A stretch of DNA of 64,000 nt from Minisyncoccota bacterium (GCA_018060545.1 JAGOVW010000001.1:61203-125202); one strand, 5' to 3'; counted from the first letter of the stretch, positions 1,423 through 27,412 are shown. Notes: generated by a model from the sequence alone, not told the origin. Translations and numbers: made by a program.

Positions 1423-2661
1423 TTACAAACGTCCTCGTGCACGTTCCGCGTTGAGAATGCGTTCGATTGATTCATGGTACGCCGCACTGCGCAGGGTACT
1501 TCCTTTTGAAACACTGCGCGCCATCACGCGTGCATATGCATCAAGGATACTCTTCTGTAATTTCTCATTAATGAGTTCTTCGTCCCACGTTTCTCCCGCT
1601 CGATTCTGCAACCACTCGAAGTAACTAACGGTCACACCTCCCCCATTAGCCAAAATATCGGGGATCACTCGCACACCTTTCATCGCCAATATTTCATCGG
1701 CTCCCACTGTGGTGGGTGCATTTGCCATCTCAATAACGAGTTGCGCCTGGACGGTGGATGCATTGTATTTGTGTATTTGGTGTGCCAGTGCGGATGGCAC
1801 CAACACCTGTACCGGTAATGCGAGCAGCTCTTCGTTCGAAACGGGCGACCCTTCAGGCAAGGTTTTTTCAGCGAGAGATGCTTCGAGCGCAGCGAGCGTA
1901 AAACCTTCGGGGGCATACACTCCCCCTTTGCTTCCTGACACCGCAACCACCTTGAAACCAAGTCCGGTCGCCAAACGAGCAAACCATCCACCTACATTCC
2001 CAAATCCCTGAATTCCAATGGTGGTTGCTGCAGGGTTCCATCCTTGTTCCTGCGCGTATCGCTCTAATAGATAGACGCCGCCACGCCCTGTTGCACTGTC
2101 ACGACCTAACGACCCCCCTTGCGCCACAGATTTGCCGGTAACTACCGCACGAGCGGGGTGCCCCACCATCTTTTCGTACTCGTCCACAAACCAATCCATA
2201 GTTTGTGCCCCCGTATTTACATCAGGCGCAGGGATGTCAGTATCGGGCCCTACGGTTGTCCCCAACGCCCGTACAAAAGCTCGCGTGAGGCGCTCGAGCT
2301 CGGCAACGCTCAGTGATTTAGGGTCACATGTTATGCCTCCCTTACCTCCACCGTAGGGGAGCCCTGCCAACGAGTTCTTCAGCATCATGAGAAATGCCAA
2401 TTCCTGCACCTCACCTTCATCAACTTCAGGATGGTACCGCAAGCCCCCTTTTGTTGGTCCGAGCGCATCGTTGTACTGGACACGCAAACCACTGAAGACC
2501 CTCACCGAGCCATCGTCCATCATGATGGGCATCGTGGTCGAAATGGTGCGCTGTGGGTGCTCCAGAATAGCCTTCTCCTTCGGAGACAAGTTGAACCCTT
2601 GTGTGATATCGAGCAACCGGCTCTGGCACGCGACGCACGCAGACGAATTGATTATATGCAT
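1423..2661 (-). CDS. gdhA: Glutamate dehydrogenase (Glu/Leu/Phe/Val dehydrogenase family)
   Basis: Track ORF 1423..2724; the family motifs are K-GG-LRYHP, PYGGGKGG and GFGNVG. The true start is probably an internal Met (MHIINSS..., 2661) rather than 2724. Confidence 0.85.
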   Translation of the reverse strand: MHIINSSACVACQSRLLDITQGFNLSPKEKAILEHPQRTISTTMPIMMDDGSVRVFSGLRVQYNDALGPTKGGLRYHPEVDEGEVQELAFLMMLKNSLAGLPYGGGKGGITCDPKSLSVAELERLTRAFVRALGTTVGPDTDIPAPDVNTGAQTMDWFVDEYEKMVGHPARAVVTGKSVAQGGSLGRDSATGRGGVYLLERYAQEQGWNPAATTIGIQGFGNVGGWFARLATGLGFKVVAVSGSKGGVYAPEGFTLAALEASLAEKTLPEGSPVSNEELLALPVQVLVPSALAHQIHKYNASTVQAQLVIEMANAPTTVGADEILAMKGVRVIPDILANGGGVTVSYFEWLQNRAGETWDEELINEKLQKSILDAYARVMARSVSKGSTLRSAAYHESIERILNAERARGRL

Positions 2662-2892: not shown

Positions 2893-4101
2893 ATGGCCTT
2901 GCTAGACCTAAAAGCACTTAACCTCGCCCTTGATGAACTCCGCGAAGAGCGTGGCGTTTCTCGCGATTCTGTTATTTCTGCTATTGCGACCGCACTCGCA
3001 ACCGCATACCGCCGCGAATACGGCAAGAAAAGCCAAATCATCCGCTGCGCCTTTAACCCTCAGACGGGAGAAATGGAGTTCAAGCAGGCAAAAATTGTTG
3101 TAGACGATTCTCTTGTGTACGACATCGAGAAGGAGCCAGAGCGAGCCGAGGATGACCACCGCTCTCGCTTTAACCCAGAGCAGCACATCATGATTGATGA
3201 TGCGCGTCGCATGAAAAAGGATGTGCAGCTCGATGAGGAAATTACTTTCCCCCTTGAGACGCGTGAAGATTTCGGCCGCATTGCTGCGCAAGCCGCCAAG
3301 CAGGTGATTCTCCAAAAGATTCGTGAGGCAGAGCGAGAGTCCATGATGGCAGAGTACGGTGAGCGCGAAGGTGAAATCGTCACCGGTCACGTACAGCGTT
3401 TCGAGCGAGGAAACCTCTTCATTGATTTGGGCCGCGCTACCGCTATCCTCCCCTACGATGAACAGATTCCTGGAGAGCGCTACCGCCAGGGTGAACGCAT
3501 TCGCGCACTCCTCTTTAAGGTGGACGAGAACGCTCGAGGCTCATTCCTCAAACTGTCTCGTTCACACCCACGCTTCCTCACCAAGCTGTTTGAAACCGAG
3601 GTGCCAGAGCTTGCGCAAGGCACGCTTGAAGTGAAAGCAGTGGTTCGCGAGCCAGGAAGTCGTGCGAAAATCGCTATCTTCTCAAAGGATTCACACATTG
3701 ATCCAGTGGGTGCGCTCGTTGGTCAGCGTGGTGTTCGTGTTGCAGTGGTTACTTCTGAACTCGGCGGCGAGAAAATCGACGTGGTGGAATGGAGCGAGAA
3801 TCCTGCGGAATTCGTACGTGAAGCACTGAAGCCTGCTGAAATCCAAGATGTCACTATTTCTGAGGACGACGGCCGCGCAACTGCTCAGGTTGCTGAAGAC
3901 CAGCAGTCACTTGCAATTGGTCGCGGTGGCCAGAACGTGCGCCTCGCTGCGCGCCTCACGGGTTGGAAAATTGATATCCGCTCAATGGGAGGTTCTTCGC
4001 TTGCTGACGAAAGCGGCCAGGCTCCTGCTCCAGAAGCACCAGCAGTAGATCCTGAAGTAGCTGCTGCAGCAGCTGTAGAGGCAGAAAAGCTTGAAGAATA
4101 A
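2893..4101 (+). CDS. nusA: Transcription termination/antitermination factor NusA
   Basis: N-terminal LDLKALNLALDELREERGVSRDSVISAI, an S1 region, and KH domains (GRGGQNVRLAARLTGWKIDI). No rimP upstream or infB downstream in this window. Confidence 0.9.
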   Translation: MALLDLKALNLALDELREERGVSRDSVISAIATALATAYRREYGKKSQIIRCAFNPQTGEMEFKQAKIVVDDSLVYDIEKEPERAEDDHRSRFNPEQHIMIDDARRMKKDVQLDEEITFPLETREDFGRIAAQAAKQVILQKIREAERESMMAEYGEREGEIVTGHVQRFERGNLFIDLGRATAILPYDEQIPGERYRQGERIRALLFKVDENARGSFLKLSRSHPRFLTKLFETEVPELAQGTLEVKAVVREPGSRAKIAIFSKDSHIDPVGALVGQRGVRVAVVTSELGGEKIDVVEWSENPAEFVREALKPAEIQDVTISEDDGRATAQVAEDQQSLAIGRGGQNVRLAARLTGWKIDIRSMGGSSLADESGQAPAPEAPAVDPEVAAAAAVEAEKLEE

Positions 4102-4116
4102 AACACAGGACGACAC

Positions 4117-4147
4117 GAAAAGCCGCGCACTTTGTGCGCGGCTTTTC
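4117..4147. terminator. Bidirectional intrinsic terminator hairpin between convergent nusA and the 850-aa ORF
   Basis: gaaaagccgcgcacTTTGgtgcgcggcttttc. An 11-bp GC-rich stem is flanked by an A-run and a T-run. A near-identical copy lies at 7581-7611. Confidence 0.65.
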
Positions 4148-4148
4148 G

Positions 4149-6698
4149 TTATACTCCCACTTCAGCAGGCTTCTTTAACACCCGCACCAATATATCTTTT
4201 AAAGTTTCTGGCTCGGCTTTCGTGATAGGTAGGCCAGCAATAATCTGTTCCAATAGTTCGTTAAACCCGCGTTCTTTCATGAGGGGCAGATCAGCTTCCA
4301 TACGCGCACGAACAGCATCTGGTTGTTCGGAAATGAACGTCTCTATTGTTGTATACGCCGCACCCACTCCGCCAGAGACCCACTCGTCACGCGTATCGGC
4401 AAGGTGCCCCAAAATCGACGCCATTCTTCCTGAAGACGGCACAGTGATGTGTGCGAACCCATCCTTCGCACTCTCGGCGCATTCAGGTACAGACCAGCCA
4501 CCGCCGTTAATGACCAGCGTTGCGGTTGGATGACCTTCTGAAATTCGGGCGAAAAGAGCCTGTCTCCCAATTGCATGCGGCAAGTAGCCATTATAATCAC
4601 CGCCCGGCGACCATCCGGCAATGAATCCAGACAAAATCATGTCGATGGGCAACGCTGGAAAGAAATCTTTAAGCATTTCCCTCGGGTACCCCGTATCGCC
4701 AATATCCATACTTAACCCTGGCTCGAACCCGACAATAGTAAAAGCAGGAACTTCCTCTTCCCGTAAGGTCGCCTTGTATTCCCACCATTTGCGAGCAACA
4801 GTTTCCGCAATCTTTCCTGACATCGTGCCTTGCATACATATGTTTGCACCTGTTTCTTTTCCTGCCTGAATGACGGCGCTCGCAATTGCATCAATTTTTC
4901 CTTGGTCTTCAACGTTCTCAAAAGCGGCCCCAGTTACTAACACCAGGGTAGGCGCAGGCTTGAGCCCAAGTGCACGCACTGCTTTCCCTTCGAGGGAGTA
5001 CGGCATACCATGCTCATTTCCCGCTTTGACCACTAGAAAGCGAGGATGTGTAGCTGGCAGCGATGCAAGAAAATCGGCAACCTTTTGCCTCGAATCTTCT
5101 GGCAAGGAGGCGACGTATTGGTCGTCCATCATCACCTCCTCCCGCTTGGGATTACCTAAATATTTCTCGACAATAGCGGGTATCGATTGTCCGGTGAGAC
5201 GGCTGCCATACCACGTCGCAATCTTTTCTTTTAAAAAGTCATTAAATACGGCTACCTCCCTATCTTCAATGGTTTTTTTGGCTATTGCCACTTTGAATGC
5301 TGCCGCTTGAGCAAGAAGTGACTCGTACTCAGTAGGCGGCATTTCATTTACTAACACAGAACACAATCCTTCAATTGCAGAGGTAACTCCTGAGACGAGC
5401 GCGGCGTCAATATCAATATTTTTTTCGTGTACGGTACGAGCGAATTGCGACACCTCTCGCTGTAATGTTTGGAAATGAAAATACGGAAGTAACAGACCTT
5501 CGAATGCTTCAAACGACGCGTTGTCGATCACAGGGATGCTCTCGTAGTTTCTTTGCAAACACTGCGCAGGTGAAGCTTCATTACCTTGTTCCACGACACC
5601 TTGTGGACCCATATACTCTGCGCGAATGTGTTTCTTCGTATCTATGAGCACGCGCACATAACGCTCGCCCGTCCAAAATCCTACGAACTCAACACCATCG
5701 GCGCGCTTACCACGCACCGCTTCGATGCCGAGCGCACTCAAATCTGCATAGCTGAGTTGCTCAAAGAGAACTGAAAGTATCTTTGAAACTTCTGCGTTAA
5801 GTGGGTCGGTGTACAGCCTTTCTCGCCTATTTTTATATACATCTTTGTTGAACCGAGCTGTTTCATGAGAATCATGTACAGAGCGCCAGGTGGCGGGATG
5901 CTGCGCGCGATACAGCTCGTCGCCATCACCTCCCTTGTATCCATGAAAGTTGAGGCGTGACGCAAGATTCAGGAGTGTCATTACTCGCGAAACAGCCTCT
6001 CTTTGCATATCTTCCGGGTTTACGTATTCACCCATATCGGCAGTTAAAAAGGCACGTAGTCGTTCGCTGGGAATATGTTGCCCGCCCGCGCAAGCATCAA
6101 CGAGCAAATCGAGATTGCCACGCATATACATAAGCAGCCGCGCCGCTTTGTCTGTCGAAGGATCCGGTAGTGCATGCTGTTCGTAGATATTCAATTCCTG
6201 GATGCGGTCATGGAGCAGTCCCGCCTGAAACGTGCTCAGTTCTGCAACAGACCCGCTGTCTCCTCGTGCTTCTGCAGTGCGCAGCGCCAATTCCATCTCG
6301 GCAAGATTGACTGACTCTTCGCCACTCACGACTCCTCCTTGTACACCAACACGATGAACCGCATCGAGGAGCGCCTCTGAAACCTCGGTATACGGAACAT
6401 GCGAGTGGACACCATCTTTACCACCAATATCTATGCGCAAACCATTAGCGTCTGGCCACAGCGAGACAGGAACTCCTTCCTGCTTCCATTGCTCAATGAG
6501 ACTTTTCCCCGCACTGCCTCGGTGTACAAAAAGCCCTTCAACAAAACTAGTGCGTTTCTCGATGGGAGCACCACGCAATTCTGCTTTGCGCAGCTGCTCG
6601 ATGATGCTGCCTGCGTCTTTGGGAGATTGGATGTTTGCCAGTACGCTGCCTATTTCCTGTTCCATGTGTTGCTGTGGTTGCCGTGGCGGCCTGTTCAT
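4149..6698 (-). CDS. Large hypothetical protein (~849 aa). The C-terminal ~250 aa resemble a SLOG-superfamily Rossmann domain (DprA/LOG-like); the N-terminal ~600 aa have no recognizable domain
   Basis: Track ORF 4149..6779. I place the start at Met 6698 (MNRPPRQ...) because an intrinsic terminator hairpin (6714-6752) sits inside the longer N-terminal extension. C-terminal motifs: LVLVTGAAF...GKIDAIASAVIQAGKETGANICMQGTMSGKIAETVARKW, FTIVGFEPGLSMDIGDTGYP, ILSGFIAGWSPGGDYNG, LVINGGGWS. Confidence 0.5.
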   Translation of the reverse strand: MNRPPRQPQQHMEQEIGSVLANIQSPKDAGSIIEQLRKAELRGAPIEKRTSFVEGLFVHRGSAGKSLIEQWKQEGVPVSLWPDANGLRIDIGGKDGVHSHVPYTEVSEALLDAVHRVGVQGGVVSGEESVNLAEMELALRTAEARGDSGSVAELSTFQAGLLHDRIQELNIYEQHALPDPSTDKAARLLMYMRGNLDLLVDACAGGQHIPSERLRAFLTADMGEYVNPEDMQREAVSRVMTLLNLASRLNFHGYKGGDGDELYRAQHPATWRSVHDSHETARFNKDVYKNRRERLYTDPLNAEVSKILSVLFEQLSYADLSALGIEAVRGKRADGVEFVGFWTGERYVRVLIDTKKHIRAEYMGPQGVVEQGNEASPAQCLQRNYESIPVIDNASFEAFEGLLLPYFHFQTLQREVSQFARTVHEKNIDIDAALVSGVTSAIEGLCSVLVNEMPPTEYESLLAQAAAFKVAIAKKTIEDREVAVFNDFLKEKIATWYGSRLTGQSIPAIVEKYLGNPKREEVMMDDQYVASLPEDSRQKVADFLASLPATHPRFLVVKAGNEHGMPYSLEGKAVRALGLKPAPTLVLVTGAAFENVEDQGKIDAIASAVIQAGKETGANICMQGTMSGKIAETVARKWWEYKATLREEEVPAFTIVGFEPGLSMDIGDTGYPREMLKDFFPALPIDMILSGFIAGWSPGGDYNGYLPHAIGRQALFARISEGHPTATLVINGGGWSVPECAESAKDGFAHITVPSSGRMASILGHLADTRDEWVSGGVGAAYTTIETFISEQPDAVRARMEADLPLMKERGFNELLEQIIAGLPITKAEPETLKDILVRVLKKPAEVGV

Positions 6699-6713
6699 GC
6701 GCCGATTATCGCA

Positions 6714-6752
6714 CAAAAAAAATGGGACGTGCACGAATGCACGTCCCAAAAA
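6714..6752 (-). terminator. Intrinsic terminator (minus-strand orientation) for the upstream high-GC ORF. It lies just upstream of the 850-aa ORF start
   Basis: Minus-strand read: gggacgtgca-ttcg-tgcacgtccc followed by TTTTTTTT. A GATAAT -10-like hexamer (revcomp of 6705-6710) lies between the hairpin and the ATG at 6698, which suggests a very short or leaderless 5' UTR. Confidence 0.5.
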
Positions 6753-6842
6753 CATCACCTCGCTTTCGGTTCGACCCACACAGTCGCCTGTGTGGGGCTC
6801 TCAGCAATAGAGAGCGTTAGATTCGAACACCGTATTCAAGGT

Positions 6843-7409
6843 TCAGTCACGCGGAGGATCACCCGCGTTCACTCGCCCATCTTCGTAGAGTTTCGGAAAG
6901 GAGGCGTCGTCGACGACCCAGATGCGGTTCCTCGCGATATTCGTCACGAGGTAGTCGCCAGAGCCGACTTCTAGCGGTCCTTTCTTCGACTCAGACGTGA
7001 CGAAGCGGCACGCCTTCTTGAACTTCCCGAGCACAACAACTGGCGCCGTCTTCTGTGCAAGAACGACATGTGTCTCCGAGCCGTACAGCTCGAAGAGGCG
7101 GTCGCCGCGCGGGTCGTCCCCAACGGCAAGTTCGCGGATCACCCGGAAGTCGACCGTGAATTGGTCGTTCGGGTACTCGTTGATCTTGCCCTCCCCATTG
7201 TCCATCGCCGCAACCTGGTGCCAATGACGGCCGCCGATTGCGTCGAGCTGGCCCCACGGCGCCTTGATGGCAACGGTGCCCAGCGCTTCCGGAACCAAGC
7301 ATGCCGCGATGTTGCCTTGCGGATTGGGGCGAGCCCAACCATGCACGGGCATCATGTAGCGGGCTGAGGGGGGAGTTTCCTTCGAGAAGGTCGGTTTCCA
7401 AAAAAACAT
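6843..7409 (-). CDS. Hypothetical protein in a visibly high-GC segment (candidate horizontally acquired gene)
   Basis: 188-aa ORF with a GGAGAG RBS 5 nt upstream of its ATG. The third codon positions are G/C-rich, unlike its neighbours. No family recognized (…PGDYLVTNIARNRIWVVDDASFPKLYEDGRV…). Confidence 0.5.
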   Translation of the reverse strand: MFFWKPTFSKETPPSARYMMPVHGWARPNPQGNIAACLVPEALGTVAIKAPWGQLDAIGGRHWHQVAAMDNGEGKINEYPNDQFTVDFRVIRELAVGDDPRGDRLFELYGSETHVVLAQKTAPVVVLGKFKKACRFVTSESKKGPLEVGSGDYLVTNIARNRIWVVDDASFPKLYEDGRVNAGDPPRD

Positions 7410-7580
7410 CTTTTCTCTCCATCAAAGCCACCCAATGTGGCAAACACAGCGCCCATGGATGCGGGCGCTGGGCATTGCCACCTACATGGTGACTCCAATG
7501 GAGTGTTGCCCTGTTACAGGCACCTCAAGTATTATACACAATTGTGTATAAATGTCAATGCACTGGCGCCTCTCTTTTAC

Positions 7581-7611
7581 GAAAAGCCGCGCACTCTGTG
7601 CGCGGCTTTTC
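7581..7611. terminator. Intrinsic terminator hairpin downstream of ppa; a sequence duplicate of the 4117-4147 hairpin
   Basis: gaaaagccgcgcacTCTGgtgcgcggcttttc. It differs from the 4117 copy by 1 nt in the loop. Confidence 0.6.
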
Positions 7612-7628
7612 TCCTTTGTTTTCAAGCC

Positions 7629-8159
7629 TTATTCTCCCTTAAATCGCTCGATGCACTCCTTGATGACAGCCACTGCGTCTTCTTTGCCACCGTAGCCCAA
7701 TACCTTTGTGGTTCCTCGCTTTTTTAGGTCTTTGTAGGTATTGAAGTGGTACTCGATCTTGTTTTTCCACATTTCCCCCAAATCATCGAGCGTTTTTACG
7801 CGATTACCACTGTCTCGGTCGTCTGCTGGGACGCAGATAATCTTGTGATCTTTTTCTCCGTCATCTTCGAAATTCAGCACCCCGAGAATTGCGGCCTCCA
7901 CGACAACTCCCATCGGTACGGGCTCTGGCGTTATGAGGAGCGTGTCCAGCTCATCACCGTCTTCGTCTTTGGTGCCTGGAATGAAGCCATAGTTTGCTGG
8001 TTTTGCGAAAATTGCAGGTTCTACGCGATCCAACTCAAATGCGCAGGTCTTGCGGTTGTACTCAACCTTAAGAATCGACTTTTCAGGAATCTCTATGACC
8101 GTATTGACGGTAAAAGAGTCCAAGTCCCCAGGGGTATATGCCGTGTTGAAGTTAGTCAT
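7629..8159 (-). CDS. ppa: Inorganic pyrophosphatase (family I)
   Basis: DGDELDTLL (DGDPLD-like) metal-binding motif; 176 aa; the overall pattern is that of soluble PPase. Confidence 0.9.
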   Translation of the reverse strand: MTNFNTAYTPGDLDSFTVNTVIEIPEKSILKVEYNRKTCAFELDRVEPAIFAKPANYGFIPGTKDEDGDELDTLLITPEPVPMGVVVEAAILGVLNFEDDGEKDHKIICVPADDRDSGNRVKTLDDLGEMWKNKIEYHFNTYKDLKKRGTTKVLGYGGKEDAVAVIKECIERFKGE

Positions 8160-8227
8160 AACTATATGTACTTACTGTTAGTAGAGATGCTGCGAGTATA
8201 CCGTGCCCACCATAGAGAGCAAAGAGT

Positions 8228-8252
8228 GAACCCGCGGCTTGCCGCGGGTTCC
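8228..8252. terminator. Terminator hairpin downstream of the 8269..8601 ORF
   Basis: gaacccgcggcttgccgcgggttc, a perfect 10-bp stem. Confidence 0.5.
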
Positions 8253-8268
8253 AAAACCGGTGACAGAG

Positions 8269-8601
8269 TCACCAGAAAAAGATAATGCGCCTGAAACGGT
8301 GCTCGTACGATTCAAAACCAATGTACCCGTGAAATCGTTCCCACGTCCACAGACGAATAATACTTGCCACCTCCCACGGCTCGAAAAGGTCTGTTTTAAG
8401 CGGTACAGCGTCTAGTGCTGTCCTTCCAGAGCCACGCCCTGCTCGGCGTTTTGCCACCAATTGGTCGTGATACCCATCAAGGGTTGCTCGAATGTCTACA
8501 CGTGCAGCGCGGCGCTCAGCGAGTGCGGCGCTCGTCTTTTGAACATACTCGTGTGGATTAACCGAACGAGCATGTGATATCTCGTGTGCATAGCGTGCCA
8601 T
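8269..8601 (-). CDS. Hypothetical small basic protein (110 aa)
   Basis: I place the start at Met 8601 (MARYAHEISHARS...), which has a GGAG RBS 8 nt upstream. The longer track ORF (to 8712) lacks an RBS. Confidence 0.4.
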   Translation of the reverse strand: MARYAHEISHARSVNPHEYVQKTSAALAERRAARVDIRATLDGYHDQLVAKRRAGRGSGRTALDAVPLKTDLFEPWEVASIIRLWTWERFHGYIGFESYEHRFRRIIFFW

Positions 8602-8760
8602 GGCCAGTCTCCTTCTGGCACTTTTGTACCATACATTTAGTAAGCAAACATCATCCACCACGTCTCCCTTTGCGCACTGGAAATGGTGGTATCCTGTAGA
8701 GAACACAGCCACCTCGGGATGTGCAGTTCAAATTATTATTAGTTCGTAGATGTAAATTGT

Positions 8761-9642
8761 ATGCAGACAAAGGTTATGAAACACGAGGCAGTAGCTACAC
8801 TTGCAACTCTCGCTCTCATTGTGGGAGTGTTTGCGGCAAGCGTCACCATCGCCTCAGCACAAGAAGACACAGGAGCAACACCGCCGCCTGTACCCCCCGC
8901 AACACGCCCTGCACCTGCTAAAATGCTCCGTGAAAAAGCACAGCAGGTAAAAGAAAACATCAAGGAGACGCGCGAAGGCATGAAGGAAGACCGAATGGAG
9001 ATCAAAGAAAAGCGCATGGACCTGAAGGAAGAGAACATGGGCGAACGAAAGGAATTCCGCGGTGACGTTAAGGAGGGTCGCAAAGAGATGAACGCCGACA
9101 TTAAGGCGAAGATGGATGCAGCTGCTACTCCTGAGGAGAAGCGAGCCGTCATGGAAGAAGCACGCGGCACGCGCGCAGAGTTCCGCGACGGAGTAAAGGA
9201 AGACCGAAAAGCACTGTTCGAAGAGAACAAGGGGCAGCGCCAAGAACTTCGACAAGAAGCTCGAGGCGTCATGGTAGAACACATGCGCCTTTCGATGAAG
9301 CGCCTCACTAACGCTATCGAGCGATTCACACAGATTATGGAGCGCATCGACTCACGTATCGCAAAACTCTCAGAGCAAGGTGCTGACACTGCAGCTGCTA
9401 CCGCAGCTGCACAAAGTGCTCATAGCGCAGTTGATACTGCATCAGCAGCAGTTGCTGAAGCTCAGGCCGCCATTGACGCCGCCGCTGGCGCAGAGGACCC
9501 AAAGGCTCAGCGAGAAGTGGTCCGCACAGCCATCAAAACAGCAGGTGATTCCGTAAAGGCAGCTCACATCGCTATAAAAGCAGCACTTGAGGCAGTGAAG
9601 GGTATCTCGAAGCCTGCAAGCACAAGTAGTGACACCAACTAA
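8761..9642 (+). CDS. Secreted low-complexity, charged, coiled-coil-like protein (signal peptide, then repetitive K/E/R-rich segments, then an Ala-rich C-terminus)
   Basis: N-terminal hydrophobic signal (VATLATLALIVGVFAASVTIASAQ). Repeated KE-x-R-x-E modules (MKEDRMEIKEKRMDLKEENMGERKEFRGDVKEGRKEM...). Confidence 0.55.
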   Translation: MQTKVMKHEAVATLATLALIVGVFAASVTIASAQEDTGATPPPVPPATRPAPAKMLREKAQQVKENIKETREGMKEDRMEIKEKRMDLKEENMGERKEFRGDVKEGRKEMNADIKAKMDAAATPEEKRAVMEEARGTRAEFRDGVKEDRKALFEENKGQRQELRQEARGVMVEHMRLSMKRLTNAIERFTQIMERIDSRIAKLSEQGADTAAATAAAQSAHSAVDTASAAVAEAQAAIDAAAGAEDPKAQREVVRTAIKTAGDSVKAAHIAIKAALEAVKGISKPASTSSDTN

Positions 9643-9658
9643 TAACTAGCATCGAGCC

Positions 9659-10021
9659 ATGGAACCGAACCAAACACCAAACACAACCCCTGTTGCAGCA
9701 CCGACACCTGCAACTCCGACTATTGCCCCAGAATCAAAGGGCGGCATAGGCCCTATTGTGGGTGCCGTCATCATCATTGCCCTTCTGATCTTTGGAGGAT
9801 TGTACTTCTGGGGTACTCAGATCGAGAAAGAGCAGACACCTGAGACGTTACCGATGATCTTGGGTGACCAGCCACAGGTGCAAGCTGCTCCTGTGCAGGA
9901 CAACACCGCACTATCTCCTTCCGACGAACCAGCTGCTATTGAAAAAGATGCAGATGATGCGTATATGGCGCAGCTTGAGGCAGACATTGATGCTGACCTT
10001 AAAGCAATCGAAGCATACTAG
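9659..10021 (+). CDS. Small single-pass membrane protein with a Pro/Thr/Ala-rich N-terminus; hypothetical
   Basis: One TM helix (IGPIVGAVIIIALLIFGGLYFWG); an acidic C-terminal tail. Confidence 0.45.
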   Translation: MEPNQTPNTTPVAAPTPATPTIAPESKGGIGPIVGAVIIIALLIFGGLYFWGTQIEKEQTPETLPMILGDQPQVQAAPVQDNTALSPSDEPAAIEKDADDAYMAQLEADIDADLKAIEAY

Positions 10022-10037
10022 GTACGACTGGGTGTTT

Positions 10038-10075
10038 AAAAAGAGCGACCGCCACAGTTGGCGGTCGCTCTTTTT
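10038..10075. terminator. Intrinsic terminator hairpin between the small membrane protein gene and tig
   Basis: aaaaagagcgaccgccacagttggcggtcgctcttttt. It overlaps the track's predicted tig start (10058), which argues for a later start. Confidence 0.6.
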
Positions 10076-10096
10076 GCTGCTATGCTCCAGTCCTGT

Positions 10097-11182
10097 ATGA
10101 CCGATCAAGACATAAAACACCACTGCATCAACGTCACGAAGACGGAAGATGTTCCCCATGCAACACTTGAAATCAAGGCTGAGTTGCCTTGGAGCGAGGT
10201 AGAGAAATACCGCGCAAAAGCGTTGCGCCGCTTACAGAAAGAAGCCTCAATGGACGGTTTCCGCAAAGGGCATGTTCCCGAAGCAATTATCCTCAAGAAT
10301 CTGGGAGAAGGTACGGTGCTACAAGAAACGGCCGACGTCGCGATTCAAGAGGAACTGCCACTTCTCTTGGCCGCTGAACGTGTGCCAGGCATATCAACTC
10401 CTCGTGTAAGCGTCACCAAGCTCGCTCCAGGCAACCCACTCGGTTTCACGGTATCAATTGAAGTGCTCCCGAAAATAGAATTGCCCGAGTACAAGAAACT
10501 CGCTGCAGCAGAGAATGCAAAGCGCACTACCGTCGAGGTAGGTGACAAGGAGGTGCAAGACGTGCTCCTCTACCTTCGCAAAGAGCGCGCCAAAATAGAG
10601 TTTATTGAGAAAGGAGAGAAACCAGAAGAAGCCGCTGAGAAAATAAAAGAATTGGAGGAAAAAGATTTGCCACCAATTGATGATGAATTTGTGAAAGGAC
10701 TTGGGTATGACAGTGCGGAAAAGTTCACCGAGAAACTCAAGAGCAACATTCAGACCGATAAGGAGGCGCAAGAAAAAGACAAGGTTCGCATCTCGATTAT
10801 CGACGCCATTCTTGCCAAAACCACGCTTGGCGTTCCCCACTCGCTCATCCATCACGAAATCGACAAGATGGAAGCTCAATTTGCAGACGACCTCGCTCGC
10901 GCAGGAACAAACCTTGAAGACTACCTAAAGAACATAAAGAAAACACACGAGGAGCTTCATCAGGAGTGGCACGAGCCAGCAGAAAAGCGCGCGAAGGTGC
11001 AACTCATCCTCGGTGACATCGCCATGAAGGAGGGCATCAAGGCAAACCCAGAGGAAGTCACAGCGCACATAACCCACACCATGAAGCATCACAAAGATGC
11101 GCAGGAACACAATGTCCGTGCCTACTTTGAGCACATGCTCAGGAACGAAGCGGTACTGAAGTGGCTTGAGGAGCAAAAGTAA
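10097..11182 (+). CDS. tig: Trigger factor (ribosome-binding and substrate-binding domains only; no obvious PPIase domain)
   Basis: GFRKGHVP ribosome-binding signature near the N-terminus. Start moved to MTDQDIK (10097), after the terminator. The ~360-aa length is typical of short CPR-type trigger factors. Confidence 0.8.
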   Translation: MTDQDIKHHCINVTKTEDVPHATLEIKAELPWSEVEKYRAKALRRLQKEASMDGFRKGHVPEAIILKNLGEGTVLQETADVAIQEELPLLLAAERVPGISTPRVSVTKLAPGNPLGFTVSIEVLPKIELPEYKKLAAAENAKRTTVEVGDKEVQDVLLYLRKERAKIEFIEKGEKPEEAAEKIKELEEKDLPPIDDEFVKGLGYDSAEKFTEKLKSNIQTDKEAQEKDKVRISIIDAILAKTTLGVPHSLIHHEIDKMEAQFADDLARAGTNLEDYLKNIKKTHEELHQEWHEPAEKRAKVQLILGDIAMKEGIKANPEEVTAHITHTMKHHKDAQEHNVRAYFEHMLRNEAVLKWLEEQK

Positions 11183-11281
11183 ACCTTCCCAAATTATAAA
11201 GGACCGACCTTTATAATTTGAAACAGCCGGCGCGCATGCGTGCCGGCTGTTTTCATGTCGTAAAAAGCCCATTCAATTTCA

Positions 11282-11926
11282 TTGGCAGCATACCGTGCCC
11301 CGTGTTACGCTCTTCTCATGGAAAACAGCAACATGCACAATCAACCAAGAGCTCAACTGGTCCCCATGGTCATTGAAAAGACGGGGATGGGTGAGCGAGC
11401 ATTCGATATTTACTCGCGCCTCCTTAAGGATCGCATCATATTCTTGGGCGGCCCCATCGACGACCACATTGCAAATCTCGTCATTGCTCAGCTCCTCTTT
11501 CTCGACTCCGAGGACCCAAAGAAGGATATATCTCTCTATATCAACTCCCCAGGTGGCGTGGTAACCGACGGTATGGCCATTATTGACACCATGAACCACA
11601 TTAAGGCCGACGTTTCCACTGTGTGTATCGGTATGGCAGCCTCGATGGGTGCGATGATTCTCTCATGCGGCGCTAAGGGCAAGCGATATGTCCTCCCCCA
11701 CGCAGAAGTGATGATCCACCAGCCACACGGCGGTGCCCAAGGGCAAGCATCAGACATTGAAATCAGTGCGAAACGCATCATCCGCATGCGCGAGGTCTTG
11801 GCTCAAATGCTTGCAAAAAACACTGGCCAGCCGCTCAAAAAGATCCAGACAGATATCGATCGCGACTTCTTCATGGAAGCCGAGGAGGCCGTAAAATACG
11901 GAATTGTCGACAAGGTTTTGAAGTAG
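11282..11926 (+). CDS. clpP: ATP-dependent Clp protease proteolytic subunit
   Basis: Catalytic Ser in [17 protein letters not shown], and the DRD/ERD region. The true start may be Met 11318 (MENSNMHNQ). No clpX follows. Confidence 0.9.
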
Positions 11927-11944
11927 GCCCCTGCCTCACTTTTC

Positions 11945-11984
11945 CCAATTAATCCCCTCGTGCGTCCACGAGGGGATTAATTGG
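11945..11984. terminator. Terminator hairpin after clpP
   Basis: ccaattaatcccctcgtgcgtccacgaggggattaattgg. Confidence 0.55.
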
Positions 11985-12137
11985 CTTTCACGAACCGCTG
12001 CGGTATACTGAAAACACAGTTATCTAAAAATTAAGTAAAATCGCGTGCGCCTAGAATATGACGTTTATACAGCAAATCCTCAGTTTTTCCCGAAAAATCG
12101 CGTGTAAACCGTAGTCTTGTCGTGCGCCTAAAGGCGT

Positions 12138-13667
12138 ATGTCATTAAAAGTTGCCCTCATGCTCGTCGCCCTATCAGGGGTGATTGGTATTGCATTTGGT
12201 TATTTTTTGCGATGGATTATTAGTCTGGGGAAGCGCGGCTCGATGGAGCTTGAAATCAAGCAGATGCGGCTTGAGGCTCAAGAAGAGGCACAGCGCGTGA
12301 CTGAGAAAGCTGAGCACGAAGCAAAGGAGCGCACCGAGAAGTCGGAAGCTGAACGCAGGGAAAAAGAGCGCGACCTCAAAAAGACTGAGGATCGGCTAGT
12401 TGAGCGCGAGAAATTGCTTGATAAGCGCCAGCAAAACCTCGATTCAGAGCAATCAGAACTCAAAAACAAGATTGAAGAAGTGAAGAAACTCAAGGAGCGT
12501 GTTGATGGTATGGCCGCAGAGAGAGCTCAGGCATTGGAAAAGGTGGCACAGCTGGACAAGGAGGAGGCAAAAGTTGAGCTGATGCGAACCATTGAAAAGC
12601 AATACGAGGAGGATCTCCTCTCTCGCATCCACAAAATGGAAATCTCAGGGCGTGAAAAACTCGAGGCGAAAGCGCGCGATATCTTGGTTACTGCCGTGCA
12701 TCGTATCGGCAATTCCATGACCGCCGACATTCTTTCGACGACAGTACAGCTTCCTAACGAAGAAATTAAAGGGAAAATCATTGGAAAGGAAGGGCGAAAC
12801 ATTCGCGCATTTGAGCGTGCAACAGGGGTTGACGTTATCGTTGACGACACACCGGGCACGATTACCCTGTCGTCTTTCGACCCAGCACGGCGCCAGGTGG
12901 CACGCGTAGCGCTTGAGAACTTGATCATGGACGGCCGTATACAACCAGCGCGTATCGAAGAGGTGGTTCAGAAGGCGCACGAGGAAATCAGCCAGATTAT
13001 GAAGAAGAAGGGCGAAGAAGCAGCGTTTGAGGCTCGCGTCACCAACCTTGACCCCAAACTCGTGCAAATACTTGGTCGTCTCTACTTCCGTACCAGTTAT
13101 GGGCAAAATGTTCTTGCACACTCAGTGGAAATGAGCCATGTTGCCGCAATTTTGGCAGAGGAATTGGGAGCCAATGTTGCCATCGCACGTGCGGGGGCAT
13201 TGTTCCACGACATCGGAAAGGCCGTTGACCACGAGGTCCCCGGCACGCACGTCGAAATCGGTCGCCGCATACTCCAGAAGTTCAATGTGGACGAGCGCAT
13301 AATCCTTGCTATGCAGGCACACCATGAGGAATACCCGTACGAGACACCGGAGAGCATGATTGTGCAGGTTGCCGACGCACTTTCAGGCGCCCGCCCAGGT
13401 GCACGCCGTGACTCAGTCGAGCAGTACATCAAGCGCCTTGAAGATCTGGAGGCAATTGCTAAGCGCCAGAAAGGCATCGACAAAGTCTACGCCATCCAGG
13501 CTGGCCGCGAAGTTCGTGTCTTTGTACGCCCGGAAGAGATATCAGACCTCGAAGCACGCGATATGGCTCGCGCAATTGCTCTCGATATCGAGAGCGAGAT
13601 GCAGTATCCAGGTGAAATCAAGGTACACGTCATCCGTGAGAACCGCGTTATTGAATTTGCACGCTAG
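12138..13667 (+). CDS. rny: Ribonuclease Y (N-terminal TM anchor, KH and HD domains)
   Basis: TM segment LSGVIGIAFGYFL; KH domain (GKIIGKEGRNIRAFE); HD domain (HSVEMSHVAAILAEELG...ALFHDIGK). Confidence 0.9.
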   Translation: MSLKVALMLVALSGVIGIAFGYFLRWIISLGKRGSMELEIKQMRLEAQEEAQRVTEKAEHEAKERTEKSEAERREKERDLKKTEDRLVEREKLLDKRQQNLDSEQSELKNKIEEVKKLKERVDGMAAERAQALEKVAQLDKEEAKVELMRTIEKQYEEDLLSRIHKMEISGREKLEAKARDILVTAVHRIGNSMTADILSTTVQLPNEEIKGKIIGKEGRNIRAFERATGVDVIVDDTPGTITLSSFDPARRQVARVALENLIMDGRIQPARIEEVVQKAHEEISQIMKKKGEEAAFEARVTNLDPKLVQILGRLYFRTSYGQNVLAHSVEMSHVAAILAEELGANVAIARAGALFHDIGKAVDHEVPGTHVEIGRRILQKFNVDERIILAMQAHHEEYPYETPESMIVQVADALSGARPGARRDSVEQYIKRLEDLEAIAKRQKGIDKVYAIQAGREVRVFVRPEEISDLEARDMARAIALDIESEMQYPGEIKVHVIRENRVIEFAR

Positions 13668-15142: not shown

Positions 15143-15390
15143 TGTAACACATCGTCAGCACGTACCCACCATGAGAGTGGTGGTATACTAGAACGAGCTT
15201 GCAATGGCAAGCTAGATGTTTATCAGCACCGCAATCTTCTCGGGGGTTGCTGAATAAATCTTTTGACTATGGATGAACAAAATACGTGCGCATGTATGGC
15301 CGTTGAAGGCCACGAGGGGAGCACTTGTGCTTGTGATTGCCACAAGGAAGCCCCAGCTGAGACCCCTGTCGTCTAGACGACAGTAGTAAG

Positions 15391-15425
15391 AAAAGACGAC
15401 AGTTCTGCTGTCGTCTTTTCTTTTT
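15391..15425. terminator. Strong intrinsic terminator that closes a ~250-nt non-coding interval (candidate sRNA 3' end)
   Basis: aaaagacgacag-ttctg-ctgtcgtctttt followed by a ctttttt run. Confidence 0.55.
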
Positions 15426-15428
15426 ACG

Positions 15429-15449
15429 GTGCGAGGTGGGAGAATCGGC
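15429..15449 (-). repeat. ~19-nt duplicate of the 3' end (T-arm and acceptor) of the nearby tRNA-Gly(TCC) gene. Possible integration att-site scar or pseudo-tRNA fragment
   Basis: Plus-strand gtgcgAggtgggagaatcgG here, against gtgcgGggtgggagaatcgA in the tRNA gene at 15624-15643 (1 mismatch in the 19-nt core). Confidence 0.5.
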
Positions 15450-15484
15450 GCAACTCACTAGTCTCTCGCAAGCTTCGCGCTCGA

Positions 15485-15549
15485 GAAAGTGGTTCCTGCC
15501 CTGGCTCGCTCGTTTTCTACCTCGCAACGCTCGGTATTCATTCGAGCTC
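15485..15549. repeat. Conserved ~60-nt element, copy 1 (the second copy is at 22258-22320). It is adjacent to a tRNA locus; function unknown
   Basis: gaaagtggttcctgccctggctcgctcgttttctacctcgcaacgctcggtattcattcgagc. It is ~80% identical by eye to the 22258 copy, in the same orientation. Confidence 0.5.
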
Positions 15550-15623
15550 CACCTTTCGATTCCCAACCTATCGCTACAGAAACAAAGTCGCCCTACATGT
15601 ACATGTAGAGCTTACTGTTTCAG

Positions 15624-15694
15624 TGCGGGGTGGGAGAATCGAACTCCCGACAAAAGTTTGGAAAACTCTCGTTTTACCACTAAACTAACCCCGC
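15624..15694 (-). tRNA. tRNA-Gly (anticodon UCC)
   Basis: Minus-strand GCGGGGTTAGTTTAGTGGTAAAACGAGAGTTTTCCAAACTTTTGTCGGGAGTTCGATTCTCCCACCCCGCA. The cloverleaf can be drawn (acceptor 7 bp, D-stem GTTT/AAAC, anticodon loop TTTCCAA, T-loop TTCGATT). CCA is not encoded. Confidence 0.85.
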
Positions 15695-19875: not shown

Positions 19876-19935
19876 AAAAATAGCAATGAAAAATGTAGAC
19901 CGAGGCACGCACCTGGAGCCAAAAACCAATATGTG

Positions 19936-20006
19936 TCGGGGCGCCGAGAATCGAACTCGGTCTATCTGGTCCCAAACCAGACGTACTACCGGTATACTAC
20001 GCCCCG
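19936..20006 (-). tRNA. tRNA-Pro (anticodon UGG)
   Basis: Minus-strand CGGGGCGTAGTATACCGGTAGTACGTCTGGTTTGGGACCAGATAGACCGAGTTCGATTCTCGGCGCCCCGA. Anticodon loop TTTGGGA; T-loop TTCGATT. Confidence 0.8.
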
Positions 20007-22126: not shown

Positions 22127-22197
22127 GCGGGCATGGTTAAGTGGTATAACACGTCCTTGCCAAGGATGAGTCGGGAGTTCGATTCTCCCTGCCCGCA
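22127..22197 (+). tRNA. tRNA-Gly (anticodon GCC)
   Basis: GCGGGCATGGTTAAGTGGTATAACACGTCCTTGCCAAGGATGAGTCGGGAGTTCGATTCTCCCTGCCCGCA. Anticodon loop TTGCCAA. Confidence 0.85.
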
Positions 22198-22202
22198 CTG
22201 CC

Positions 22203-22237
22203 AAAACTAAAGCTGCCTTCTAGGCAGCTTTAGTTTT
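22203..22237. terminator. Terminator hairpin after tRNA-Gly(GCC)
   Basis: aaaactaaagctgccttctaggcagctttagtttt. Confidence 0.55.
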
Positions 22238-22257
22238 GTAAGAGTCATTGCAAAGGG

Positions 22258-22320
22258 AAGTGGTTCCTACCCGGGCTGGCTCGTTTGCTACCTCTCCATG
22301 CTCGGTATTCATTCGGGCAT
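22258..22320. repeat. Conserved ~60-nt element, copy 2 (copy 1 is at 15485-15549). It lies between tRNA-Gly(GCC) and tRNA-Arg
   Basis: ggaagtggttcctacccgggctggctcgtttgctacctctccatgctcggtattcattcgggc. Confidence 0.5.
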
Positions 22321-22391
22321 CGCTTTTCGAGCCCTGGTCGCGGCTAGAAAGTCAAAGACGCTGAATGCTGCGCATCCGTGTCTTCGTTTTG

Positions 22392-22463
22392 TGCTCCCGC
22401 CAGGACTCGAACCTGGAATAACTGATCCGAAGTCAGTCGTGATATCCATTTCACCACGGGAGC
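22392..22463 (-). tRNA. tRNA-Arg (anticodon UCG)
   Basis: Minus-strand GCTCCCGTGGTGAAATGGATATCACGACTGACTTCGGATCAGTTATTCCAGGTTCGAGTCCTGGCGGGAGCA. Anticodon loop CTTCGGA. Confidence 0.8.
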
Positions 22464-26423: not shown

Positions 26424-27338
26424 CTATGAACGTCGCTTACCGTGAAACTTCTGGTGTATCTCACGTAGATGCTTGTCTGTTACGTGTGTGTAAATCTGTG
26501 TGGTATTGATACTGGCATGCCCCAAAAGGGCCTGCACACTGCGAATATCCGCGCCGTTTTGCAGCAAGTCGGTGGCAAAACTATGTCGCACTACGTGCGG
26601 GGTAACTTTCTTTGTTATGCCGGCTTTGATGGCGTATTTTTTAACCATGCGCTCTACCGAGCGGCTGGTAATGCGCCTCTCCTTGCTCGCCGTTGCATTT
26701 TTCCCATACTGAATGAACAGTGCCTCGTCGAAATCATCTCGTACTTTGAGGTAGGCTGCTATAGCTTCCTTGGCGGTGGGGGAGAAGAACACTACGCGGA
26801 GCTTTTCCCCTTTTCCGCGCACCGTCAATTCATCCCGCGATAGATCAATGTCTTGATTAAGAGAAGTTAGTTCAGAGACGCGCAGTCCCGTGGAAAAGAG
26901 TGTCTCAAGAATGGCTCTATCCCGCAGTGCGGGAAGCGAACTTCCTTCAGGAGCCTTCAACAGGCGCGCGAGGTCCGACTCACTTATCATGTCGATTTCT
27001 CGATCGGGAAGTTTTGCTAATTCAATTGTTTCAGGCTGAAGGGTCTTAATGTTGTGTTTTCGTAAGTACTTCAAGAAAGCGCGCAAGGCAATGAGATAGT
27101 AGTTTTGAGTGCGTTTCTTCAGATTTCCTGCAGTACCATCTTGGCGGTTTAGCCATATGCGGAACTCGCGCACTGTACTGTGTGCGATATCTTCAGGACG
27201 TCGTACTTTGGCCTGCTCAAAGAAGCGCGTAAGGTAGCGATCATAGTTTTCCACCGTTTTCACCGAACGGCCTCGCTCAATCTCTACATACTCCAAAAAC
27301 TGCTGCTTGTACTCATCAATAGGGGATTTGCCTGCCAT
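26424..27338 (-). CDS. xerC: Tyrosine site-specific recombinase (XerC/XerD family)
   Basis: The C-terminal catalytic region HVVRHSFATDLLQNGADIRSVQALLGHASINTTQIYTHV, carrying the catalytic Tyr (R-H-R-Y); the N-terminal SAM-like domain. Confidence 0.8.
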   Translation of the reverse strand: MAGKSPIDEYKQQFLEYVEIERGRSVKTVENYDRYLTRFFEQAKVRRPEDIAHSTVREFRIWLNRQDGTAGNLKKRTQNYYLIALRAFLKYLRKHNIKTLQPETIELAKLPDREIDMISESDLARLLKAPEGSSLPALRDRAILETLFSTGLRVSELTSLNQDIDLSRDELTVRGKGEKLRVVFFSPTAKEAIAAYLKVRDDFDEALFIQYGKNATASKERRITSRSVERMVKKYAIKAGITKKVTPHVVRHSFATDLLQNGADIRSVQALLGHASINTTQIYTHVTDKHLREIHQKFHGKRRS

Positions 27339-27412
27339 GAAAAAAGGATACCACGCTGCGTCGCACAATATTTCCGCAGCGTGACTGAGCTCCCCACTGT
27401 GCATGCTATATT

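Follow-up and report, generated by a model that had tools for sequence, protein, structure and literature searches.

A putative gene-less insertion element associated with tRNA T-loops in Paceibacteria

The window analyzed here is a 64,000-nucleotide stretch of the genome of a Minisyncoccota bacterium (GCA_018060545.1 JAGOVW010000001.1:61203-125202), in which an initial annotation had drawn attention to two segments of about 63 nt, at positions 15485-15549 and 22258-22320, next to tRNA genes. The explanation that we favor, with a probability of about 0.5, is that these segments are core copies of a non-autonomous, gene-less insertion element specific for tRNA T-loops in a Paceibacteria lineage of the Patescibacteria, or Candidate Phyla Radiation (CPR). 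The copies show the anatomy of an insertion, filled and empty sites, several tRNA targets with matching repeats, tandem arrays, a covarying strand-specific fold and no coding capacity. The host is a member of the Patescibacteria of the Paceibacteria/Kaiserbacteria kind, and the window, which carries dnaA at 61611-62957, is chromosomal. The adjacent CCA-adding enzyme shows 100% identity to a protein assigned by NCBI to a 'Candidatus Pacebacteria' metagenome-assembled genome.

The two segments had been described as approximately 80% identical and co-oriented. A blastn comparison against the window agreed with this, aligning 15487-15559 with 22258-22330 in the same orientation at 83.6% identity over 73 nt (E = 1e-17), and the 16-mer CGAATGAATACCGAGC is identical in both. 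A third match to this 16-mer, at 47466-47481, has 3 mismatches in 16 positions, sits within an open reading frame (ORF) at 47324-48274 and was dismissed as a chance match. The segments start 74 and 71 nt beyond the 3' ends of tRNA-Gly(TCC) and tRNA-Arg(TCG), respectively, which is in line with the reported 70-80 nt from the 3' ends of minus-strand tRNAs. ARAGORN and the Rfam tRNA model RF00005 called only four tRNAs in the window, all of them true ones:

15623-15694, minus strand: tRNA-Gly(TCC) (ARAGORN; Rfam, 70.1 bits)
19935-20006, minus strand: tRNA-Pro(TGG) (ARAGORN, Rfam)
22127-22198, plus strand: tRNA-Gly(GCC) (ARAGORN, Rfam)
22391-22463, minus strand: tRNA-Arg(TCG) (ARAGORN; Rfam, 66 bits)

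The conserved unit far exceeds 63 nt and spans approximately 15430-15641 in copy 1 and 22258-22409 in copy 2, which is truncated. In copy 1, 194 bp (the distance between the direct repeats DR1 and DR2) are inserted after the GTT of the tRNA-Gly(TCC) T-loop. Read in the tRNA sense, this copy and its flank consist of the following parts:

15624-15641, minus strand: DR1, the element-borne 3' part of tRNA-Gly from T-loop position C56, CGATTCTCCCACCCCGCA (repeat search)
15577-15623, minus strand: spacer hairpin P0, the terminator-like trailer of the restored tRNA (terminator scan match at 15611-15590)
15557-15576, minus strand: IR, an inverted copy of the tRNA-Gly 3' end, TAGCGATAGGTTGGGAATCG (folds)
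15448-15556, minus strand: Y-shaped core with the junction GAAA, P2 with the internal loop GGA/GA, and P3 (minimum free energy fold, z = -3.1)
15430-15447, minus strand: DR2, the displaced original 3' end of tRNA-Gly(TCC), CGATTCTCCCACCTCGCA (17 of 18 positions identical to the tRNA 3' end)
15385-15425, no strand assigned: native bidirectional terminator in the old chromosomal flank, outside the element (CsrC-terminator-like match)

The tRNA-Gly(TCC) gene is intact, its 3' end being supplied by DR1. The copy 1 IR can pair either with DR1, forming a long palindrome at 15557-15641, or with DR2, forming the closing helix P1. The segment annotated at 15485-15549 falls within the copy 1 core. The initial annotation also placed Gly-tRNA sequence beside each copy. 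The fragment at 15430 is real, but instead of being merely adjacent tRNA sequence it is the displaced tRNA 3' end, a direct repeat that marks an insertion into the T-loop; the supposed counterpart at copy 2, tRNA-Gly(GCC), is not equivalent and is merely a convergent neighbor. DR2 is followed by the native terminator of a neighboring small Cys-rich ORF, and this terminator (15385-15425) is common to that ORF and, prior to the insertion, to tRNA-Gly(TCC). In the relative L004 (83%), the matching terminator directly abuts tRNA-Gly(TCC), and for this reason we regard the L004 locus as an empty site.

The same architecture describes the family as a whole, in which the inserts measure 146-240 bp and carry no gene. 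The entry point lies between T-loop positions 55 and 56, just behind GTT, and the order in the tRNA sense is the tRNA up to GTT, DR1, P0, IR, the junction GAAA, P2, 0-2 nt, P3 and DR2. DR1 runs from C56 to the tRNA 3' end and includes about 5 nt of trailer. Because the unit brings its own copy from C56 past the 3' end, the tRNA gene stays whole. P0 has a shape homologous across the members, of the form (C)AAAAy..GGAG..GACGC-GAA-GCGTC..GAyGAC..TTTTG. The IR is the reverse complement of DR1, degenerate in its acceptor part and with an extra base opposite the discriminator, and it varies with the target tRNA (GGGAATCG for Gly and CAGGACTCG for Arg). Its pairing with DR1 gives a palindrome of 82-85 nt in all 9 of the 9 tRNA-proximal units, with folding energies of -38 to -52 kcal/mol, and its pairing with DR2 gives helix P1, which closes the Y. 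P2 consists of 3-5 bp, an internal loop of GGA or GCA opposite GA, and a further helix with a variable tip. P3 is a long variable hairpin that directly abuts DR2, and DR2 (the displaced tRNA 3' end) is followed by the old chromosomal flank.

The 63-mer of the initial annotation thus corresponds, in terms of this unit, to P2 and the 5' half of P3. The hairpin proposed for it, GCTCG(9)CGAGC, is perfect in copy 1, but copy 2 reads GCCCG...CGAGC and contains one C·A mismatch. It is also probably not the pairing conserved in the family, in which helix P2b joins the 5' GCTCG to another CGAGC that is more distal and located before the conserved GA of the internal loop; the L005 version of this helix is GCCCG-AGC-CGGGC. 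In complete copies with an intact direct repeat, identity begins at a single T-loop base (...C/CGA, the slash marking the boundary), and the break points between the adaptor (DR, P0 and IR) and the core are exactly ...TCG/AAAG and ...C/CGA.

The two window copies differ in their state of preservation, as copy 2 is truncated and decaying. Its parts are:

22392-22409, minus strand: DR1, the 3' part of the intact tRNA-Arg (palindrome coordinates)
22328-22391, minus strand: spacer hairpin and inverted tRNA-Arg 3' end, ...TAGCCGCGACCAGGGCTCG (fold; alignment with the complete L002 Arg copy)
22258-22327, minus strand: truncated core with P2 and the 5' half of P3 only (alignment to three full copies stops at ...CCACTT)

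DR1, spacer and IR together form an 82-nt palindrome at 22328-22409 with an energy of -38 kcal/mol. The distal third of the element, comprising the 3' half of P3 and DR2, is missing, and the tRNA-Arg fragment expected beside this copy is present in L002 and lost in the window. The segment annotated at 22258-22320 lies within the truncated core, which is 83-86% identical to the cores of other copies. A perfect bidirectional terminator hairpin, AAAACTAAAGCTGCC-TTCT-AGGCAGCTTTAGTTTT at 22203-22237, follows tRNA-Gly(GCC) and now also bounds the truncated Arg element.

In order to locate further copies, we collected syntenic loci of relatives through homologues of the adjacent CCA-adding enzyme, and then sought the element as tRNA 3'-end repeats in every fetched locus and by a family-consensus pattern in a viral collection. 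Approximately 280 kb of related DNA was examined, together with the collection scans, which used exact patterns. Eleven complete and six partial copies were found in seven Paceibacteria assemblies, at tRNA-Gly(TCC), tRNA-Gly(GCC), tRNA-Arg(TCG), tRNA-Glu(CTC) and one tRNA without an identity call:

Window: tRNA-Gly(TCC); tRNA-Arg(TCG), truncated
L002: tRNA-Gly(TCC); tRNA-Arg(TCG); tRNA-Gly(GCC), with a degenerate repeat
L005: tRNA-Gly(TCC), with a 146-bp insert
L064: two copies in tandem at tRNA-Gly(GCC); one at tRNA-Arg(TCG)
L093: tRNA-Arg(TCG), with the contig end falling inside the element
L094: tRNA-Glu(CTC), and three remnants
L118 (an IMG/VR contig): an array of at least three copies with the CAAATCCC core, at a tRNA of unassigned type

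No elements were found in L004, L065, L066 or L067. The suspicion that the two segments might be the only copies, missing from related genomes, therefore does not hold, since relatives carry them at several tRNAs. L002, whose CCA-adding enzyme is 84% identical to that of the window, has both window copies; at its tRNA-Arg, TTGTGCTCCCGCCAGGACTCG occurs twice, 192 bp apart, with the second occurrence at the far side of the element. Direct tRNA 3'-end repeats bound the inserts in the window, L002, L005, L064 and L094, and the restored tRNAs score 61-75 bits. In total, about 11 of 35 syntenic tRNA loci in 10 assemblies are occupied. In L005 and L066, tRNA-Gly(GCC) and tRNA-Arg are only 8-10 nt apart and represent empty sites, and hence the DNA between these two genes in the window, L002, L004 and L064 was inserted.

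Tandem arrays are found in L064 (7476-7750) and L118 (2835-3440). Their internal units retain only the 9-10 nt core (CGATTCTCC or CAAATCCC) in palindromes of 44-54 nt, and the full tRNA 3' end is present only in the unit adjoining the tRNA, so the 'short' units occupy the displaced repeat of the tRNA-restoring unit. The 9-10 nt segment, which covers T-loop positions 56-60 together with the 3' T-stem strand, acts like the site of crossover. The L118 array has cellular genes on one side and a prophage end on the other. This prophage (3440-12794 of IMGVR_UViG_3300033463_005745) carries endolysin and tail-fiber genes and a reverse transcriptase of the diversity-generating retroelement type beside a tail protein. 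It integrated later, in the acceptor part of the array-carrying tRNA, has no element core, and its junction GGGTTACGGCC/TCCCTCTCCG (the slash marking the junction) places the crossover at a position different from that of the mini-elements.

Several further observations were made at these loci. Three independent assemblies (L062, L063 and L093, position 1) break in or just past the tRNA-Arg upstream of the CCA-enzyme gene; L062 starts exactly at TCGAACC in the T-loop and L093 stops within an element. Such breaks fit a repeat, or a polymorphism between filled and empty sites, confusing the assembler. In L094, a core-like sequence at 3975-4054 (plus strand) has a perfect P2 (GCC-GGA-GGCGC...GCGCC-GA-GGC) and a P3, is inverted with respect to the tRNA-Gly(GCC) close by, lacks clear repeats of tRNA origin and reaches only 9.8 bits with the covariance model described below. 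L065, which is without the Y-shaped element, contains a different and simpler tRNA 3'-end repeat: past its tRNA-Pro(TGG), at about 7270-7400 (minus strand), lie three tandem 43-nt units, each made of a 22-nt hairpin segment (CCACCGTAAGGTGG) and the last 21 nt of tRNA-Pro from the T-loop.

Unconstrained folding gave the same Y in 10 of the 11 complete copies, and the copies tested against shuffled sequences had z = -3.1 to -5.6. The tRNA-Gly(TCC) copy of L002 has, at 2364-2410 (minus strand), an extra segment of about 50 nt between P2 and P3, whose fourth hairpin gives a four-way junction, and its DR2 is cut to 10 nt. A covariance model was built from the window Gly copy, the L002 Arg copy and L064E1, and with E-values that are rough owing to a short calibration it recovered six copies outside this training set (L002Gly, 2e-16; L064E2, 7e-12; L094Glu, 2e-7; L005Gly, 2e-7; the window Arg copy, 3e-7; L118A, 3e-7). 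All matches were in the tRNA sense and beside tRNAs, and there was no further significant match in 277 kb. The model matches the copy 1 core at 15438-15566 with 146 bits, and copy 2 at 22238-22337 with only 39 bits, 3 A·C pairs and 3 other mismatches.

The covariation analysis across relatives that had been proposed for the segments gave standard pairs in 92.5% of the pair cells, as compared with 70.8 ± 1.6% in shuffles, and changes on both sides in 31 of the 41 pairs, as compared with 18.6 ± 2.4 in shuffles (none of 500 reached 31); these numbers lean towards structure because the alignment was fitted to the model. In slid-partner controls, pairing fell to 35-47%. A MAFFT alignment of all subfamilies was not consistent with the structure and was dropped. 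There are 21 G·U pair cells versus 6 A·C, and in each of the 8 copies compared the stability of the tRNA-sense strand exceeds that of its complement by 3.6-11.7 kcal/mol. Hence, the structured molecule is the tRNA-sense strand, be it RNA or single-stranded DNA. When folded in full, from the tRNA to DR2, the unit resembles a giant tRNA with the element inserted in its T-loop. Conserved structure with compensatory changes on one strand is what is expected of a new structured non-coding RNA family, and as modeled the element has both.

A comparison of the element with the genes around it is also informative. The coding DNA of the flanking genes is 72-78% identical between the window genome and L002; the cores of the window Gly copy and of the L002 Gly and Arg copies are mutually 90-92% identical, irrespective of genome or tRNA. 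The core therefore appears to be exchanged as a module between tRNA-specific adaptors (DR, P0 and IR), and the direct repeats and IR match each copy's own target tRNA. Damaged copies include the truncated window Arg copy, the L002 Gly(GCC) copy and several L094 copies, which are degenerate. Such a combination of near-identical and decaying copies, patchy occupancy and arrays is the pattern of a selfish element.

The initial annotation held that the segments are not tRNAs, terminators or protein-coding sequence, and this was borne out. A search of Rfam 15 over both window copies, on either strand, and over L064 and L005, at gathering as well as permissive thresholds (E <= 5-10), returned only true tRNAs and noise, the best noise match over the element being Clostridiales-1 at 19 bits versus a threshold of 48; no known RNA family can thus be assigned. 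ARAGORN and RF00005 found no cloverleaf over the element, and DR2 is just an 18-nt fragment, which speaks against a tRNA or tRNA pseudogene. The inserts contain no credible ORF, as the sole overlapping ORFs cover the tRNA genes on either strand. A promoter and terminator scan showed no promoter-like site in the window element and no intrinsic terminator (a GC-rich hairpin followed by a T run) in the core, its only matches being the copy 1 spacer at 15611-15590 and the flanking native terminators. A group I or bulge-helix-bulge intron in the T-loop was rejected, there being no Rfam match and the upstream tRNA being complete. The same applies to a TnpB/IscB guide RNA, whose guide would target the restored tRNA itself, to an IS110 bridge RNA, as the repeats are far longer than its 2-nt core, and to a retron or retro-element, as no reverse transcriptase is linked to the element. 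A split or permuted tRNA was considered and set aside.

In the database scans, the pattern CTACC N{6,10} CTCGGTATTCATTCG matched only the L002 species and four chance sites in genome contigs, and three chance sites in metagenome contigs. Three patterns run on viral contigs gave no matches or chance matches that were rejected by nhmmer or by a check of the architecture; the pattern CGAGNCGGGGTCGC N{20,50} GTGACC in the viral collection gave one true match among 23. An nhmmer profile of two and then four copies did not detect the L005, L064 and L094 members, which were located by their tRNA 3'-end repeats, and a gapless inverted-repeat scan found only perfect copies and background. Pfam and PHROGs searches of 40 window ORFs and of the inter-tRNA ORFs of relatives identified only a syntenic Xer-like tyrosine recombinase with Phage_integrase and SAM_1 domains, encoded next to rpsO at 26424-27404 (minus strand) in the window, approximately 4 kb away from the elements. 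It is probably the housekeeping dif recombinase. Full-text literature searches found no description of such elements.

As to how an element of this kind might move, we infer an enzyme and a mechanism from the anatomy described above. The unit would travel as a small circle, using the 9-10 bp core CGATTCTCC for site-specific recombination by a recombinase provided in trans. The recombining or transferred form may be single-stranded. In the folded single strand, the inverted copy would pair with the tRNA copy and thereby rebuild the duplex target, by analogy with the integron attC site or the attP hairpin of the CTX phage, and the Y-shaped core would be the part recognized for replication, transfer or recombination. 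A bolder version, which we consider unlikely, is that these are the smallest known integrative mobile elements, i.e. protein-free single-stranded circles of about 150-200 nt (DNA, conceivably RNA) consisting of a rod and a Y, with a hairpin mimic of the T-arm/acceptor duplex as the attachment site and with serial T-loop insertion accompanied by gene repair. If true, it would mean an integron-cassette-like or viroid-like lifestyle in CPR bacteria that makes use of a host or phage enzyme.

A number of findings weigh against a mobile insertion element. The assembled DNA examined showed neither a circular form nor an excision junction nor an autonomous master copy, and no recombinase, transposase or Rep protein was found in or adjoining any copy. 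The Xer-like gene is syntenic in nearly all relatives, including those free of the element. The folded hairpin has its crossover point right at the foot of the stem and restores no more than one half of a classical two-arm recombinase site. The purine-rich conserved loops (GAAA and GGA/GA) and the G·U pairs are more RNA-like than DNA-like, and the core could be so strongly conserved because it serves the cell, not because it moved recently. The lean of the covariation figures towards structure belongs here as well. Finally, the family distribution is a lower bound only, because the collection scans need exact patterns.

The chief competitor, to which we give an appreciable but clearly smaller likelihood than to the insertion element, is a small structured RNA gene co-transcribed with the tRNA, in which case insertion merely spreads the gene and selection preserves the RNA. 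In such a transcript, the IR would pair with the downstream tRNA 3' fragment to form a minihelix resembling the acceptor and T-stem, from which RNase P, RNase Z and the CCA-adding enzyme could release a Y-shaped RNA of 90-170 nt. The tRNA-sense-specific structure with G·U well above A·C, the GAAA junction and GGA/GA loop typical of RNA tertiary motifs, and the giant-tRNA fold of the unit all agree with this, as do a core better conserved than the flanking genes and the native tRNA terminator that follows DR2 in most copies. A CCA follows the L005 fragment, but it does so after just that one of the fragments. Moreover, the copy 1 spacer hairpin that comes after the tRNA is terminator-like, the element has no promoter-like site of its own, and in a co-transcript the IR would sequester the 3' half of the tRNA in a hairpin of -38 to -52 kcal/mol. 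The patchy distribution, the truncated and degenerate copies and the tandem arrays also suit a selfish element better than an RNA that is needed.

The remaining explanations rank lower than the RNA gene. It is quite unlikely that we are dealing with a miniature derivative of a HUH-type transposon (IS91-like or IS200/IS605-like) that has subterminal hairpins and inserts 3' of a short target, with the tRNA 3' copy retained only since copies lacking it kill an essential single-copy tRNA gene. Strand-specific hairpins do lie close to each end (P3 stops 0-1 nt short of the right boundary), the insertion point is in or beside the GTTC found in every T-loop, long terminal inverted repeats are absent save for the target-derived ones, and a single-stranded circle intermediate would suit an element of 150-200 nt. 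However, GTTC is far too common to account for exclusive targeting of tRNAs, such families make no target duplication, direct and inverted target-matched copies of 18-25 nt are foreign to their known ends, and a HUH transposase was not found at any locus examined. Very unlikely, in our estimate, are inert scars, i.e. attL/attR arms left by larger phages or islands that have since been deleted. Integration into the 3' ends of tRNA genes is a classical observation, as are partial tRNA copies left behind as scars; a prophage did enter the tRNA that carries the L118 array, and L065 has another kind of tRNA-Pro 3'-end repeat. Independent deletions, however, would not yield one architecture, with identical boundaries and a palindrome of 82-85 nt, at five tRNA species, nor are compensatory changes in 31 of 41 pairs, or 90-92% core identity where the genes are about 75% identical, expected of scars. 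The L118 prophage itself has no core and crosses over at another tRNA position, and the viral scans, made with exact patterns, showed no full-length relative. A chance or purely local duplication of the two window copies is of negligible probability. There are only two copies in the 64-kb window, and the exact-pattern scans of genomes, metagenomes and viruses found the family in only one other species, but the window copies match each other at E = 1e-17, orthologous and paralogous copies occur in independent assemblies from different studies, and the covariance model recovers distant members.

Taken as an insertion element, the unit resembles several known systems without coinciding with any of them. 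Tyrosine integrases that use a T-loop sublocation within tRNA genes were reportedly described by Williams in 2002. Integrative elements, prophages and islands that target tRNAs share with the present element the start in the T-loop, the replacement 3' end, the displaced end as a direct repeat, an occupancy that varies among relatives, and the serial or tandem entry of several units into one tRNA. Unlike them, our element is only 146-240 bp long and contains no gene, hence no integrase, and it has an additional inverted copy of the att segment, a covarying strand-specific Y and one core for several tRNA species. Cis-mobilizable elements (CIMEs) and other integrase-less members of the families of integrative conjugative and integrative mobilizable elements likewise have att-type flanks and no recombination genes of their own and are presumed to be mobilized in trans. 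However, CIMEs measure kilobases and arose by deletion from a known parent, whereas the present element is about 0.2 kb long, has no known parent and has a conserved folded interior. As in integron attC sites and the folded attP of the CTX phage, its palindrome is imperfect, contains unpaired bases, varies little in length and has the crossover at the hairpin base, and like integron cassettes it shows tandem arrays at one primary site, a strand bias and possibly a recombinase encoded elsewhere. On the other hand, it has no RYYYAAC/GTTRRRY boxes, the ends of its palindrome are target-derived (CGATTC...GAATCG; CGAGTC...GACTCG), there is no intI or attI beside any array examined, and a tRNA T-loop serves as the primary site. 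In place of the ORF that a cassette normally contains, the interior here is a non-coding Y-shaped fold; the resemblance to these systems is a putative one.

Miniature inverted-repeat transposable elements (MITEs) and REPINs are similarly small, non-coding, multi-copy and hairpin-forming, depend on an enzyme in trans and leave decaying copies. In contrast to them, the present element is found strictly at tRNA T-loops, and its 'terminal repeats' are target copies that vary with the tRNA; in contrast to MITEs, the duplication is 18-25 bp rather than 2-10 bp, and there are no family-wide terminal inverted repeats and no dispersed sites. Finally, in mascRNA/MALAT1, the tRNA-like structures of plant viruses and the tRNA-like domain of tmRNA, a helix mimicking the acceptor and T-stem closes a larger RNA, and as modeled the helix of the present element could similarly recruit RNase P, RNase Z and the CCA-adding enzyme. 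Unlike these structures, it has no T-arm hairpin and no D or anticodon arm, and neither ARAGORN nor Rfam makes a tRNA-like call. The segments are indeed tRNA-linked, and two of the roles suggested in the initial annotation (a recombination site or a miniature repeat family) pointed in the right direction, but only the middle third of the unit had been seen.

Next to copy 1, the Cys-rich ORF mentioned above encodes 35 amino acids (MDEQNTCACMAVEGHEGSTCACDCHKEAPAETPVV; 15271-15378, plus strand) and is preceded by a leader of about 47 nt, TTATCAGCAsCGCAAyCTTCTCGGrGGTTGCTGAATAmATCTT. The region concerned is 15218-15377 (plus strand) in the window, 2085-2245 in L002 and 1820-1975 in L004. Among these three genomes the leader is far better conserved than the ORF, and it can form a hairpin CAGCA...TGCTG. 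Neither has a match in Rfam or Pfam. The leader may be a cis-regulatory RNA for a metal-binding peptide.

The genomes of CPR bacteria, or Patescibacteria, are tiny, and to our knowledge few mobile elements have been described in them. The covariance model can be used to annotate further copies, and the co-occurrence of recombinases with these copies offers a handle on the enzyme. The element accounts for the partial tRNA copies near tRNA genes in metagenome-assembled genomes of this kind, and perhaps for contig breaks such as that in the tRNA-Arg T-loop of L062. If the folded-hairpin mechanism is true, single-strand site-specific recombination would reach beyond integrons and the phages that exploit Xer. 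And if the insertion element is what we take it to be, selfish DNA, or a mobile RNA gene, would have a new mode of persistence in streamlined genomes: an insert of about 0.2 kb, devoid of genes, that targets the universal T-loop, restores the tRNA on entry, accumulates in arrays and maintains a covarying single-strand fold.

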